64,000 nt of DNA from Blastocatellia bacterium (GCA_034665305.1 JAXDFZ010000010.1:307567-371566), one strand, 5' to 3'. Shown: positions 6,639 to 11,571, counted from the stretch's first letter. Translations and numbers: made by a program. The notes: generated by a model from the letters alone, not told the origin.

Positions 6639-7733
6639 ATGATCAAACAGTCTGCTTACATGCACTGGGCCAAAACGCGACCGCGAGTCAAATATGACCT
6701 CGCCCTGAGCGGCGTTCTCAATCTGCCTTTCAGCGAACTGGACGTAGAACTCGCGGATCTGGATCTCAACGGACCGAATCCCTACGGTTATCCGCCGCTG
6801 CTCGAAGCGTTGGCAACCCATTGCAAAGTCACGCCGGAAATGGTCGTCACGGTTTCGGGTGGCACTTCGATGGCCAATCACCTGGCGATGGCGGCATTGC
6901 TGAATCACGGTGATGAAGTGCTCGTGGAAGAGCCAACTTACGATCCGCTGCTCGCCGTGGCGGAGTACCTCGGAGCCCGTATCAAAAGATTTGCGCGCCC
7001 GTTCAGCACCGGCTTTCGCATTGATCCCGAAGCGATTCGCGAACAGATCACCGAACGCACGCGGTTGATTGTTCTCACGAACATGCATAACCCGAGCAGC
7101 GTCCTGACCGATAACGAAACCTTGAAAGAAATCGGATTGCTGGCGCGAAGCGTCGGCGCGCGCGTGCTGGTCGACGAAGTTTATCTGGAGGCATTGTTCG
7201 AAGCCGGACCGTCTTCATGCGTTCATCTGGGGCCGGAGTTTGTGGCTACCACCAGTCTTACCAAAGGCTATGGCCTCAGTGGGTTGCGTTGTGGCTGGAT
7301 CCTCGCAGCGCCTGAATTGGCGCAAAAATTTTGGCTGTTGAAAGATATCTTCGAGGGTGTTGGGCCACATCCGACCGAACGTTTAAGCGTAGTGGCGTTG
7401 AAACAGTTGCGTCGCATCGCCACTCGCGCGAAAAATATTCTCCGAACTAATCGCGCCGCGCTTAATCAATTCCTGGAATCACAGGACGAGCTTCAGGCGG
7501 TGCCAACTGAATCGGGGACGACGATCTTTCCGCTTCTGCGCCACGGCAGCGTCGATATGCTTTGTGATTTGCTGAACCGCAAGTATGAGACGGCCATTGT
7601 GCCCGGGCGATTTTTTGAAATGCCACAGCATGTGCGCGTAGGAATCTGCTGTGAGCCGGAACTCTTTACCGGCGGCCTGGAAAGACTGGGCGCGGCATTG
7701 TCTGAACTACCGCAGACGGATCAGAGGCGATGA
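6639..7733 (+). CDS. Pyridoxal phosphate-dependent aminotransferase, class I/II fold
   Basis: 364 aa with aminotransferase class I/II core motifs. The start lies 4 nt after the permease stop, and its stop overlaps the next start (ATGA). Confidence 0.75.
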   Translation: MIKQSAYMHWAKTRPRVKYDLALSGVLNLPFSELDVELADLDLNGPNPYGYPPLLEALATHCKVTPEMVVTVSGGTSMANHLAMAALLNHGDEVLVEEPTYDPLLAVAEYLGARIKRFARPFSTGFRIDPEAIREQITERTRLIVLTNMHNPSSVLTDNETLKEIGLLARSVGARVLVDEVYLEALFEAGPSSCVHLGPEFVATTSLTKGYGLSGLRCGWILAAPELAQKFWLLKDIFEGVGPHPTERLSVVALKQLRRIATRAKNILRTNRAALNQFLESQDELQAVPTESGTTIFPLLRHGSVDMLCDLLNRKYETAIVPGRFFEMPQHVRVGICCEPELFTGGLERLGAALSELPQTDQRR

Positions 7734-9775
7734 GAATCAGCATCATTGGCGGTGGGCCAGCCGGGCTTTACTTCGCCATCCTCATGAAACGGACCGATCC
7801 GGCGTACGAAGTCACGGTCTATGAGCGGAATGGCCCAGACGATACATTCGGCTGGGGTGTAGTCTTTTCCGGAAAGACGCTAGCGAATCTGAAAGCGGCT
7901 GACGAAGAATCGTTCCGGCAAATCACCGATAGTTTTCAAACCTGGGACAACGTAGACGTCCGGCACCGCGATCAGCAGGTTACGATTCGCGGTAATCATT
8001 TTTCCGGCATCGCGCGTCTGGAGCTGCTGCGCATTCTGCATCGCCGCTGTCTGCAGTTGGGCGTCGAACTGAAGTTTCGCGCTGATCTGTCTCCTGCAGA
8101 TATTGCAGCGTTGCGAGACACTTCGAATCTGGTAATCGGTGCTGACGGTGTGAACAGCACGGTGCGCCGGGAATACGCGAAGGTGTTTGAACCGACGCTC
8201 GGAGTCCGCACGAATAGATATATTTGGTACGGCACACACCGCTTGTTCCATGGTTTGACGCTGACCTTTCGCGAGAATCCAGACGGCGTTTTCGCCGCGC
8301 ATTCATACAAATTCAACGAATCCACCAGTACGTTCATCATTGAGTGTGATGAACAAACCTGGAGGCGCGCCGGTTTCGCGGAGATGACGGACGCGGCGAC
8401 CCGAAGTTATCTGGAGCAGGTGTTTGCGCCGGACCTCGACGGCCACTCGTTGTTATCCAACAATTCAAAATGGATTAACTTTCTGCTCGTAAAGAACGCG
8501 AGTTGGAGTTACGGCAACATGGTCTTGCTGGGTGACGCGTTGCACACGGCGCATTTCTCGATCGGCTCAGGAACTAAACTAGCGTTCGAGGATGCGATCG
8601 CTCTACACAAGTGTTTTGCCGGGTCGGCAGATGTGCGTTCTGCTTTGGAAGAATTCGAAAAAGTGCGGAAGCCGGTCATCGAAGAATACCAGGCCGCCGC
8701 CTACGACAGCATGGTTTGGTTTGAGAACGCGAGGCAGTACATGCACCTCGATCCGGTCGAGCTAGCGTATGTGTTGATGACCCGCAGTGGGAAAGTCGAT
8801 CGCGACAGTTTGCAGCGGCGAGATCCGGAGTTTGTGGCGAGGTATGAGGCGTCGCGCGAATCGAATTGCTTCCGCGCTGGGACCAAGGTCAAAACAGGAA
8901 AAGGGTGGCGGGTAATTGAAGAAATTCAACCAGGCGAACTTGTTTTGTCTTATGAGAACGGCTTGCGCATGGTGGTTAGTTTACAGAAGCGACCGCATGT
9001 TGGAAGGTTACTTGGGCTTCGTTTGCGATCAAACATTGGGATTGTTTGGGTGACGCCAGACCAATGCTTTCTTGCCCCCTCTCCGCAAGCGGAGAGGGGG
9101 TTGGGGGGAAAGGAAGAGGCGCCAGCTAACCCCACCCCAAACCCCTCCCCGCGGGCGGGGAGGGGGAAGAACGCTGAGGTTCAGTGGAAACTCGGTGGAA
9201 CTTCTCCGACAACCGCTTACTTAGCACGGCAGTTACGAAAGGACTCAACCTCGGCAGAAAGGATTCTTTGGGAGTGTTTGCGCGGGCGGCGTTTAGCTGG
9301 TGCCAAGTTCCGCCGACAACATCCACTGGGAACCAATTATATAGCTGACTTTTATTGTTCTGAGGTGGGGTTAGCGATTGAGCTCGATGGAAGCGTGCAT
9401 GACTCTAATAAGGGGCGATGGGCCGACGGGATTCGACATCGACAACTGGCAGTGAGCGGCGTCAAGTTCTTGCGCTTTGAAAACTCACGGGTCTTCGACG
9501 ATTTAGATGGTTTATTACATCAGATCGCGCAATATCTCGTCGCTTCCAACCCCCAACCTGAGGGTAGTGAGGAACGACCAAAATGGCGAATAGCGAAAGA
9601 CCTTCTTCCCGGGGACCGACTGATCATTGACGAACACGGGCGCGTAGAATTCATCGAGAGTGTCGATCAGATTGTTGTTAATGAATCCGTTTACGATCTG
9701 GTGCTCGAACGGAACAGCCCATTTATTACCGAAGCGGGAGTTGTGCGCAGCCTTCATACGAGTGAAGTACAATAG
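7730..9775 (+). CDS. FAD-dependent monooxygenase. It is the N-terminal half of a 2-aminobenzoyl-CoA monooxygenase/reductase, also called a salicylyl-CoA 5-hydroxylase-like bifunctional enzyme. It is fused in frame to an intein-like Hint domain that encloses a DUF559 endonuclease.
   Basis: Residues 1-379 (MRISIIGGGPAGLYFAILMKRTDPAYEVTVYERN...GDALHTAHFSIGSGTKLAFEDA) match the monooxygenase half of the bifunctional aminobenzoyl/salicylyl-CoA monooxygenase-reductases. From Cys380 (nt 8867) the sequence switches to Hint block A (CFRAGTKVKTGKGWRVIEEIQPGELVLS) and block B (IVWVTPDQ). It then reads through a REP element, a DUF559 domain and Hint C-terminal blocks (VYDLVLERNSPFITEAGVV) before the stop. 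Confidence 0.7.
   Translation: MRISIIGGGPAGLYFAILMKRTDPAYEVTVYERNGPDDTFGWGVVFSGKTLANLKAADEESFRQITDSFQTWDNVDVRHRDQQVTIRGNHFSGIARLELLRILHRRCLQLGVELKFRADLSPADIAALRDTSNLVIGADGVNSTVRREYAKVFEPTLGVRTNRYIWYGTHRLFHGLTLTFRENPDGVFAAHSYKFNESTSTFIIECDEQTWRRAGFAEMTDAATRSYLEQVFAPDLDGHSLLSNNSKWINFLLVKNASWSYGNMVLLGDALHTAHFSIGSGTKLAFEDAIALHKCFAGSADVRSALEEFEKVRKPVIEEYQAAAYDSMVWFENARQYMHLDPVELAYVLMTRSGKVDRDSLQRRDPEFVARYEASRESNCFRAGTKVKTGKGWRVIEEIQPGELVLSYENGLRMVVSLQKRPHVGRLLGLRLRSNIGIVWVTPDQCFLAPSPQAERGLGGKEEAPANPTPNPSPRAGRGKNAEVQWKLGGTSPTTAYLARQLRKDSTSAERILWECLRGRRLAGAKFRRQHPLGTNYIADFYCSEVGLAIELDGSVHDSNKGRWADGIRHRQLAVSGVKFLRFENSRVFDDLDGLLHQIAQYLVASNPQPEGSEERPKWRIAKDLLPGDRLIIDEHGRVEFIESVDQIVVNESVYDLVLERNSPFITEAGVVRSLHTSEVQ
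8867..9760 (+). other. Intein-like (Hint) element with a nested DUF559/Vsr-like endonuclease domain, probably degenerate
   Basis: Block A begins with Cys. Block B reads TPDQ where the canonical motif is TXXH. The C-terminal block reads GVVRSLHT where VVHN is expected. Only 4 codons (SEVQ) follow as a C-extein before TAG. The DUF559 region (about 9185-9543) has the hallmark YIADFYC...LAIELDG...H...D...R...VLRFEN motif. Confidence 0.6.
9075..9166. repeat. GC-rich triple-palindrome REP-like element family A, copy 1. It is inserted in frame inside the intein-like ORF.
   Basis: CCCCCTCTCCGCAAGCGGAGAGGGGG ... AACCCCACCCCAA ... CCCCTCCCCGCGGGCGGGGAGGGG. The first and third modules are perfect palindromes. 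It is translated as APSPQAERGLGGKEEAPANPTPNPSPRAGRG without a stop. Confidence 0.8.
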
Positions 9776-9781
9776 TATTGA

Positions 9782-11335: not shown

Positions 11336-11426
11336 AGACTCGAAAGCCCACCGTCTCAATCGTGTAACAGGAACGAATCCAAAGCGGTGTCGCGCTGCGC
11401 TTGCCCCGGACTCCAGATGTTCTTTA

Positions 11427-11516
11427 CCCCCTCTCCGCAAGCGGAGAGGGGGTTGGGGGGAGAGGATGCGACGGCGCTAACCCCACCCCCAACCCCTCCC
11501 CGCACGCGGGGAGGGG
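11427..11516. repeat. GC-rich triple-palindrome REP-like element family A, copy 2
   Basis: Same three modules as copy 1 and in direct orientation (CCCCCTCTCCGCAAGCGGAGAGGGGG ... CCCCTCCCCGCACGCGGGGAGGGG). It lies between the OYE gene's 5' region and kynU. Confidence 0.8.
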
Positions 11517-11571
11517 CTTACTCTGTGGTAAATTATCGTATCGAATAATTTGATAGCAGACGGAGTCTCCG

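Follow-up and report, generated by a model that had tools for sequence, protein, structure and literature searches.

Which event placed an intein-like sequence at the end of a catabolic gene, and was an enzyme broken on the way? This question is raised by a 64 kb stretch of a genome from Blastocatellia (Acidobacteriota), here called the window, whose positions serve as coordinates throughout. On its plus strand an open reading frame (ORF) of 681 amino acids (7730-9775) starts with a flavin adenine dinucleotide (FAD) monooxygenase (residues 1-379, 7730-8866, Pfam FAD_binding_3) and continues into Hint sequence; its product has a 100% identical match in a metagenome-assembled genome of Blastocatellia. 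A convergent minus-strand ORF encodes an Old Yellow Enzyme (OYE) type flavoprotein (Pfam Oxidored_FMN PF00724, 1.8e-39) ending at 9782, so that the two stop codons are separated by 6 nt. The bifunctional aminobenzoyl-coenzyme A (CoA) monooxygenase/reductase and the salicylyl-CoA 5-hydroxylase are single polypeptides, and hydroxylation plus reduction of 2-aminobenzoyl-CoA by the fused enzyme is established. An earlier note on this DNA had offered two explanations, namely an in-place inversion within a formerly fused gene, or two genes that had been separate from the start, with an intein-like sequence entering later at the C-terminus of the monooxygenase. The elements it described, which are the ORFs, the gap between their stops, the Hint sequence (from Cys380, Pfam Hint_2) and two copies of a repetitive extragenic palindromic (REP) element, are all found where it had placed them. 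Taken as a whole, we consider it likely that this is an ordinary two-gene locus, in which an ectopic and vertically inherited module derived from an intein, splicing-dead and yet selected, stands before the stop codon of the monooxygenase.

The insertion becomes visible in the comparison with a close relative (locus L088, on a 1.87-Mb contig), whose seven cluster genes are 87-91% identical to those of the window at the nucleotide and 92-95% at the amino acid level. Its monooxygenase is an intein-less orthologue of 377 amino acids, 94% identical to the monooxygenase domain of the window, and its TGA stop directly abuts the stop of the OYE gene (TGA/TTA; the slash marks the junction here and below). 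When the codons are compared one by one, window and L088 remain collinear as far as codon 377; the window then carries 918 extra nt (8861-9778, 306 codons) and rejoins L088 at TGA/TTA, with the native monooxygenase TGA being kept at 9779-9781, two codons past the current TAG. The empty-site junction of L088 reads ...CGAAGGTGA/TTATCG.... The block is also absent from the loci L002 and L003; in the close relative L089, whose OYE is 93% identical, both the insert and its C-terminus are as in the window. Judged by this alignment the gene is otherwise normal and has the insert directly in front of its original stop codon, and both synteny and the empty site support the second explanation of the earlier note, that of an ancestrally separate pair with a later insertion.

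The residues after 379 comprise a Hint N-lobe, a palindrome-encoded stretch, a DUF559 nuclease and a Hint C-lobe; the nuclease, and the position of REP copy 1 within translated coding sequence, had been missed in the earlier note. The DUF559 assignment is based on Pfam PF04480 (96.6 bits versus a gathering cutoff of 20.6; 1e-27), on the DUF559 structure 3HRL in the Protein Data Bank (2.3e-11 by sequence; template modelling (TM) score of 0.87 in Foldseek) and on the Vsr-like homing endonuclease I-Bth0305I (3R3P; Foldseek TM 0.70-0.76), and the conserved residues D161/F162, E172/D174 and H178 are kept, being invariant in our alignment A3. For the Hint part, Foldseek found bacterial intein-like (BIL) domains, the gp41-1, RecA and PI-SceI inteins and Hedgehog, with 6Y75, 2LWY and 1AT0 as the best structures. 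In an AlphaFold2 (AF2) model of residues 380-681 both Hint lobes are confident, with a pLDDT (predicted local distance difference test) of about 90, the nuclease is lower (63-83), and intein residues 74-111, which correspond to the palindrome-encoded peptide, fall below 50 and are disordered. From sequence, model and fold comparison the module is thus intein-derived, with the DUF559 nuclease in the usual endonuclease position.

The same architecture is present in 23 homologues from Blastocatellia/Pyrinomonadaceae, which are 58-72% identical overall, and six of the 23 possess the full canonical class 1 set, namely Cys1, TP(D/E)H in block B, DH in block F, the terminal HN and a Cys at +1 followed by 1-7 residues. 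When residues 380-681 were searched against 1.84 billion representative proteins, the closest full-length relatives were located inside N6/N4 DNA methylases, at ...DPT/C...HN/CGSGTT and with 47-53% identity over about 295 amino acids; with the methylase-borne intein P0241 the module is 50% identical over 305 amino acids. The N6_N4_Mtase match ends at position 188 of PF01555, at the start of the intein, in P0243, P0264, P0322 and P0341, and behind the intein of P0253 it continues from position 190. Splicing would restore ...DPTCGSGTT at the methylase junction. Block B of the methylase inteins likewise reads TP(D/E)H. The S-adenosylmethionine (AdoMet)-binding motif I is a classic intein site, and the canonical members of the module family indeed appear to be true inteins within this motif (DPx/CGSGTT) of N6/N4 DNA methylases. 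The copy in the window has kept Cys1 (Cys380) and reads TPDQ in block B, NS in block F and ...GVVRS/LHTSEVQ followed by the stop at its C-terminus; block F and C-terminus of L089 are the same.

How did the module reach the monooxygenase? It may have arrived at the 3' end of the gene by an ectopic, non-homing insertion together with a stub of its C-extein. The site is an unconserved last codon, canonical copies at this place end in HN/CG... like the C-extein of the methylases, and the methylase copies, which occupy a conserved active-site motif, comprise sequence types of greater divergence. The GC content of the intein is 0.49-0.51 compared to 0.55-0.59 for the host genes. The alleles with an intein occur at scattered places in a tree of 111 monooxygenases, a scatter that overstates true absence since protein length alone is misleading here, as seen for P0060, and at shallow nodes the trees of intein and host agree. 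Window, L089 and P0002 have the same derived defects in common; in P0391, block B is TPDQ as in the window and the terminal His-Asn is lost as well. Taken together, the history would be one old acquisition, followed by mostly vertical descent in Blastocatellia/Pyrinomonadaceae with repeated loss or decoupling.

The patchiness could alternatively be explained by an actively homing intein, whose DUF559 nuclease would have led to repeated recent invasion of empty alleles. This would fit the interleaving of intein-plus and intein-minus alleles across the host tree, the presence/absence polymorphism between genomes of about 91% identity, the selection on the nuclease described below and the unusual divergence of the host sequence just 5' of the insert. 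We regard it as rather unlikely, as the branching of the intein follows that of its host at shallow nodes, the shared derived defects just mentioned imply vertical descent and the neighbouring genes show no foreign tract; a splicing-dead copy would also gain little, although homing itself needs no splicing.

One case of such decoupling concerns the lineage of P0060 and P0393 (L087 288-1184; a JGI locus), where a canonical intein (C1, TPDH, DHSF, HN/CGNEP) is encoded in another frame. This out-of-frame intein P0393 overlaps the 3' end of P0060, a monooxygenase gene of 374 amino acids, by 17 nt in three contigs from at least two samples, and the frame break may be explained by programmed frameshifting, by an assembly error that recurs or by a frameshift of recent date. 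At the P0391 locus the host monooxygenase gene is fragmented.

Does the module still serve a function in the window, or is it a neutral, decaying remnant that is tolerated as a C-terminal tail? Of the 23 copies, 17 lack catalytic splicing residues, decoupling by frameshift or fragmentation is seen at several loci (P0393/P0060, P0391) and the module is dispensable, given its precise absence in L088, all of which would be expected for a remnant. However, the 302 codons contain neither a stop nor a frameshift, and the DUF559 catalytic motif as well as the nucleophile at intein position 1 (Cys or Ser) are kept in 23 of 23 copies. Between window and L089 the intein shows a dN of 0.020 and a dS of 0.123 over 219 codons, and this ratio of 0.17 comes from the only comparison usable for the purpose, with about 28 substitutions. 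Against L001, a 72%-identical relative, pN is 0.18-0.25 versus a pS of 0.75-0.94 in both Hint lobes and DUF559, which is to be read as a pN/pS contrast only, as the synonymous sites are saturated and the ratio is unusable there. For the host genes dN/dS between window and L088 is 0.06-0.10. Mean identity across the 23 copies is 63% for DUF559, 70% for the REP peptide and 46-54% for the Hint lobes. A functionless tail is thus improbable, and the window copy seems to be still under purifying selection (dN/dS about 0.17) despite its lost splicing residues.

Splicing itself has very little probability here. An active intein that excises itself and ligates the short C-extein might be imagined from the complete canonical residues in six relatives, the methylase members that look fully competent and the Cys1 still present in the window. 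Yet the window copy lacks the block B His (Gln instead), the block F Asp-His (NS), the terminal His-Asn (RS) and the +1 nucleophile (Leu), and the very close relative L089 has the same C-terminus and block F. With the needed residues absent the copy is very unlikely to splice. During normal intein decay the endonuclease is lost first, and a kept nuclease next to lost splicing residues is the reverse of this order. Such a state would be expected if a dispensable C-extein frees the host from the need to splice: with the module at its very C-terminus the enzyme would function without splicing. We prefer a model in which the 681-amino acid precursor undergoes N-terminal self-cleavage at Asn379-Cys380 as in Hedgehog and BIL domains, which would free a monooxygenase of native size and a Hint-DUF559 nuclease; alternatively, the 681-amino acid protein may work as a stable fusion.

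Several points weigh against the picture of an ectopic, vertically inherited and selected module. The 12 nt just 5' of the insert (stretch 8845-8860 of the window) differ from L088 at about 8 of 12 positions at a background of about 9%, which could reflect a recombination or co-conversion tract; alternatively these last four host residues may represent target-site immunity or a fast-evolving tail. The difference to L088 may be a loss in L088 as well as a gain in the lineage of the window. The direction from methylase to monooxygenase is deduced from site conservation, diversity and the HN/CG stub only. Replacement of the block B His by Gln would normally impair the N-S acyl shift, making autocleavage uncertain, and the small number of substitutions behind the intein dN/dS and the saturation against L001 count here as well. 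Finally, all compared sequences are metagenome assemblies, with the architecture recurring in more than 20 independent ones. An assembly artefact was considered and ruled out on the latter ground, as these assemblies come from NCBI, JGI, ENA and Logan.

Turning to the partner gene, the OYE has more than 100 homologues of about 490 amino acids each with 77-93% identity, and the motif MWKFxNPIKH is present in all eight homologue N-termini that were read, being the protein start in the five with 490 amino acids. Because the homologues share this length and this start, the conserved ATG at 11254 is the start of the OYE, giving a gene of 490 amino acids from 9782 to 11254. The open frame from there to 11440, in which the earlier note had seen a long 5' extension without a clear start, is non-coding and reaches REP copy 2 by chance. 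This OYE subfamily is unusually long, very strongly conserved and named 'dimethylglycine catabolism A' in some annotations. A split intein with its C-half on the OYE was also considered and ruled out, since both Hint lobes are located in the plus-strand ORF and relatives without the intein have the same conserved N-terminus of the OYE.

No monooxygenase-OYE fusion was present among the top 120 matches of the monooxygenase, about 95 of which are stand-alone proteins of about 374-411 amino acids, while the other 25 or so carry a Hint/DUF559 extension or are fragments of such proteins; many of the stand-alone proteins are 70-80% identical to the window monooxygenase. Likewise, the top 120 OYE matches are stand-alone, of about 490 amino acids and without a monooxygenase fusion. 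The intein-less and palindrome-less loci L002 and L003 contain permease, aminotransferase, monooxygenase (plus strand), OYE (minus strand), kynureninase, tryptophan 2,3-dioxygenase (TDO) and CoA ligase, and order and orientation are the same in the intein-bearing L001 and P0005 loci. In the relatives without Hint and REP sequences (L002, L003 and L088) a monooxygenase of about 377-382 amino acids and a 490-amino acid OYE are convergent and have normal starts, which is the finding that the earlier note had set as its test against a rearrangement.

Homology to the bifunctional family, which the earlier note had assumed for both halves, holds for the monooxygenase, with 470 bits over positions 1-384 of the 768 positions of the NCBIfam profile PRK08255 and 47% identity of its residues 1-373 to residues 1-381 of a fused 785-amino acid homologue from Ralstonia. 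The OYE is not specifically related to this family: PRK08255 (124.5 bits) scores below BaiCD (146) and mycofactocin OYE_2 (153), identity to the reductase half of the Ralstonia enzyme is 34% over 217 and 29% over 103 amino acids, and an extra insert of about 100 amino acids is present relative to the fused enzymes. The curated cutoff of PRK08255 is 1078 bits for the whole protein, and monooxygenase and OYE each score far below it. By these measures the OYE is not a recently detached half of a fused enzyme. Separate tail-to-tail genes are the rule in this clade, and no inversion has occurred; this two-gene arrangement is already ordinary and widely annotated there. The suspected inactivation of the pathway enzyme finds no support either, as the two-protein form is the norm of the clade and both genes are under strong purifying selection.

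An in-place flip of the reductase segment of a fused gene, with breaks at a REP element and at the border of the intein, is next to impossible. It might be suggested by the characterised and annotated homologues in Proteobacteria and Gemmatimonadota, which are fused (785-797 amino acids), by the close stops, by palindromic repeats in the vicinity of either end of the OYE segment and by an OYE frame open to REP copy 2. However, the same convergent, separately translated pair is present in relatives without Hint or REP, the OYE has its conserved ATG, its constant length, its low identity to the fused reductase half and its extra insert, the ancestral monooxygenase TGA is retained beside the OYE stop, REP copy 1 lies 700 nt inside the intein and away from any junction, and REP copy 2 is a strain-specific insertion.

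The two REP copies (9075-9166 and 11427-11518) are direct and self-palindromic, share 79% identity over 78 nt and have the same hairpin arms. No such match occurred in shuffled windows and the hairpin core is found nowhere else in the 64 kb, so that the dispersed copies amount to two, one of them in coding sequence. Each copy consists of two inverted triplex motifs of the BoxC/TMECO type, composed of C-arm, loop, complementary G-arm, TT(T) and mirror G-arm, as in CCCCCTCTCC-GCAAGC-GGAGAGGGGG-TT-GGGGGGAGAGG. This intrastrand triplex architecture has been described for E. coli BoxC/'TMECO' by Holder et al. 2015 (PMC4666352, whose Table 1 was compared), and the stems of E. coli and window are near-identical (CCCTCTCC and GGAGAGGG). 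A generic genomic REP or a terminator was rejected, as no further copy exists in the 64 kb; neither was a terminator- or promoter-like consensus found in 9600-11700 nor an Rfam family in 7000-12500.

REP copy 1 is kept in all 23 intein copies as the Pro/Gly-rich peptide SPSPQAERGxGGE...PTPxPSPxAGRG preceding the nuclease. Its synonymous divergence from L001 is 0.30 compared to at least 0.68 in the other regions, which points to a putative constraint at the nucleotide level or to gene conversion. REP copy 2 is absent from all relatives examined (L001, L002, L003, L088 and L089) and is a simple indel relative to L088 (window 11405-11535, L088 4728-5000), where it replaces about 34 nt. It is a separate, recent solo insertion unrelated to any breakpoint. 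Its distance is 54 nt to the kynureninase GTG and 172 nt to the OYE ATG, upstream of each, so that either promoter may be affected.

We counted the palindromes in 80 DUF559 loci (L004-L083) from many phyla, obtained by scanning genome contigs with the intein alignment; the matches were driven by DUF559 peptides and were for the most part stand-alone DUF559 genes, which made the scan poor for inteins and useful for the palindromes. Within 300 nt of the DUF559 core BoxC-type hairpins occur at 1.68/kb versus 0.056/kb elsewhere in the same loci. As a control for bias, 54 loci were taken whose match starts after the REP peptide, so that this peptide did not contribute to retrieval, and here the values are 1.44 versus 0.05/kb (about 29-fold), with 26 of the 54 loci positive. 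Hairpins flank the DUF559 gene on both sides in 19 loci, and the third mirror arm is present in 92 of 107 DUF559-near hairpins versus 6.5% at random positions. One copy from Chloroflexota is almost identical to the E. coli TMECO type B, and the ycjD gene of E. coli K-12, which encodes DUF559, is followed by a TMECO at 168 nt from its stop, with an imperfect hairpin over the stop itself. DUF559 is also found in frame and without Hint in large restriction-modification proteins of type I, type IIG and type ISP (P0250, P0268, P0278, L019, L022 and L062), usually bracketed by palindrome-encoded PSP..GEG peptides, and fused to HisF (P0413, P0424, P0441-P0474), to tRNA-binding domains (MetG-like, related to tRNA synthetases) and to other housekeeping proteins.

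The association between DUF559 and BoxC is strong across these loci. Holder et al. (PMC4666352) described the triplex motifs as unlinked to any gene class or mobile element, and our incomplete literature search found no published link between DUF559 or ycjD and BoxC. Candidate roles of the adjacent palindromes are cassette ends, nuclease target or insertion hot spot. As a tentative and somewhat doubtful proposal, nuclease and palindromes might form one widespread selfish cassette with the palindromes as its ends or as the target, in analogy to REP elements and REP-associated tyrosine transposases (RAYT). If true, this would explain why near-identical CCCTCTCC...GGAGAGGG stems lie beside DUF559 genes in organisms as different as E. 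coli (ycjD), Chloroflexota, cyanobacteria and Acidobacteria, why there are in-frame seats in restriction-modification and housekeeping genes with palindromes as Pro/Gly linkers, and where the endonuclease module of the intein family came from. The window would then contain three states of the cassette: captured by an intein, turned from a splicing element into a C-terminal nuclease domain, and newly seeded as a solo palindrome pair 2.3 kb away.

Compared to known systems, the locus shares with the fused PRK08255 family (about 770-800 amino acids) the homologous N-terminal FAD monooxygenase, the anthranilate-CoA context and an OYE-type neighbour, but it has two genes and an OYE of 490 amino acids matching this family no better than unrelated OYE families. 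As in class 1 inteins, the module has the Hint fold, a nuclease in the usual loop between the lobes and an in-frame position absent from orthologues, and its relatives possess C1, TxxH, HN and C+1, the methylase members being located in a conserved active-site motif. It differs in that the nuclease is an in-frame DUF559/Vsr-like enzyme and not LAGLIDADG or HNH, that the module is inserted at a metabolic enzyme's last codon, where there is no conserved motif and the C-extein comprises 2-10 residues, and that the window copy kept the nuclease and lost the splicing residues. The best structural matches, the BIL and Hedgehog Hint domains, are likewise C-terminal, with a position 1 nucleophile and no ligation partner, a likeness that suggests possible cleavage rather than splicing; in contrast to them the module descends from true inteins by sequence, carries a nuclease and misses the block B His.

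Vsr-like 'EDxHD' homing endonucleases have been reported as free-standing ORFs in split inteins or group I introns (Dassa 2009, PMC2677866; Taylor 2011, PMC3239194) and as antisense ORFs in phage inteins (bioRxiv 10.1101/2025.01.02.630785). With these enzymes (I-Bth0305I) the module shares the Vsr-type PD-(D/E)XK fold and the association with inteins; its DUF559, however, is in frame within a contiguous intein of a bacterial chromosome and bracketed by palindromes. In an incomplete literature search no in-frame DUF559 intein was found described, except for a passing mention for Thermosynechococcus (PMC9403480). The palindromes agree with BoxC/TMECO (PMC4666352) in the order of the arms, the inverted pairs of motifs and the near-identical stems; they differ from the E. 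coli copies, which are reported as always intergenic, in that one copy of the window is translated and in their link to DUF559 genes.

The positions of all features are collected in Table 1. Upstream of the monooxygenase are genes for a short-chain dehydrogenase/reductase (SDR), an enoyl-CoA hydratase, an acyl-CoA dehydrogenase, an amino-acid permease and an aminotransferase. The cluster appears to encode an ordinary catabolic route from tryptophan via anthranilate to anthraniloyl-CoA, and the assignment of the monooxygenase fits because of this pathway; 2-aminobenzoyl-CoA is its putative substrate from gene context alone (TDO, kynureninase and CoA ligase). Start/stop overlaps of the ATGA type are present between aminotransferase and monooxygenase (7730-7733) and between TDO and CoA ligase (13821-13824), which suggests possible translational coupling. 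In L001 (5962-6421) a RelB/ParE toxin-antitoxin pair and an ORF of 275 amino acids lie between TDO and CoA ligase, none of which is present in the window.

Table 1: Coordinates of the features discussed (positions in the window unless another locus is named).
Feature	Position	Strand	Basis
Putative anthraniloyl-CoA (2-aminobenzoyl-CoA) monooxygenase domain, stand-alone, aa 1-379 of the 681-aa ORF	7730..8866	+	PRK08255, Ralstonia and L088 comparisons
In-frame 918-nt block: Ser378-Asn379, 302-aa intein-derived module, TAG, one codon	8861..9778	+	absent from L088
Hint N-lobe, aa 380-447, Cys1 kept, block B TPDQ for TxxH	8867..9070	+	Pfam Hint_2, alignments, AF2 pLDDT ~90, Foldseek
REP copy 1, inverted BoxC/TMECO palindrome pair, translated SPQAERGLGG...PTPNPSPRAGRG, disordered linker	9075..9166	+	motif comparison, AF2
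DUF559 (Vsr-like PD-(D/E)XK) nuclease, aa 497-603, between the Hint lobes	9218..9538	+	Pfam PF04480, 3HRL, Foldseek
Hint C-lobe, aa 621-675, block F NS for DH, C-terminus VVRS/L for HN/C	9590..9754	+	alignments; AF2 pLDDT 87-93
TAG stop of the 681-aa ORF (9773-9775), one codon, ancestral TGA (9779-9781) abutting the OYE stop	9773..9781	+	sequence read; L088 TGA/TTA at the same place
OYE-family FMN oxidoreductase, 490 aa, convergent partner	9782..11254	-	PF00724; position and orientation same in L001, L002, L003, L088, P0005 and P0393 loci
REP copy 2, solo BoxC/TM palindrome pair, divergent OYE/kynureninase intergenic region	11427..11518	.	absent from relatives
Kynureninase	11572-12759	+	Pfam; same gene order in relatives
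Tryptophan 2,3-dioxygenase (TDO)	12922-13824	+	Pfam; same gene order in relatives
AMP-forming CoA ligase	13821-15428	+	Pfam; same gene order in relatives
BoxC/TMECO palindromes	window 9075-9166, 11427-11518; loci L004-L083; L086 1005-1040, 1195-1220		
DUF559 in restriction-modification proteins	L019 2537-4870; L022 3059-6850; L062 2543-5026 (internal stop)		

In summary, Blastocatellia would carry out the anthraniloyl-CoA monooxygenase/reductase step with two intact proteins, and the long ORF is neither a pseudogene nor a mis-assembly. What appears to be new is a selected, splicing-dead contiguous intein with an in-frame DUF559 at the last codon of a metabolic gene. It belongs to a family of contiguous inteins with an in-frame nested DUF559/Vsr-like endonuclease, whose description we did not find in the searched literature, and it offers a natural case of an intein for which splicing is unneeded, as it is located at the last codon of its host gene. 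At least 23 copies are graded from canonical to splicing-dead with nuclease and fold still under selection, and the series around the window looks like an intein that may be becoming a terminal domain of the BIL/Hedgehog type. By itself the locus is of moderate interest, which would increase if the link between DUF559 and BoxC proves functional. Through this association DUF559 becomes a candidate partner protein for BoxC/TM repeats, which have been orphans in E. coli and in many further bacteria.

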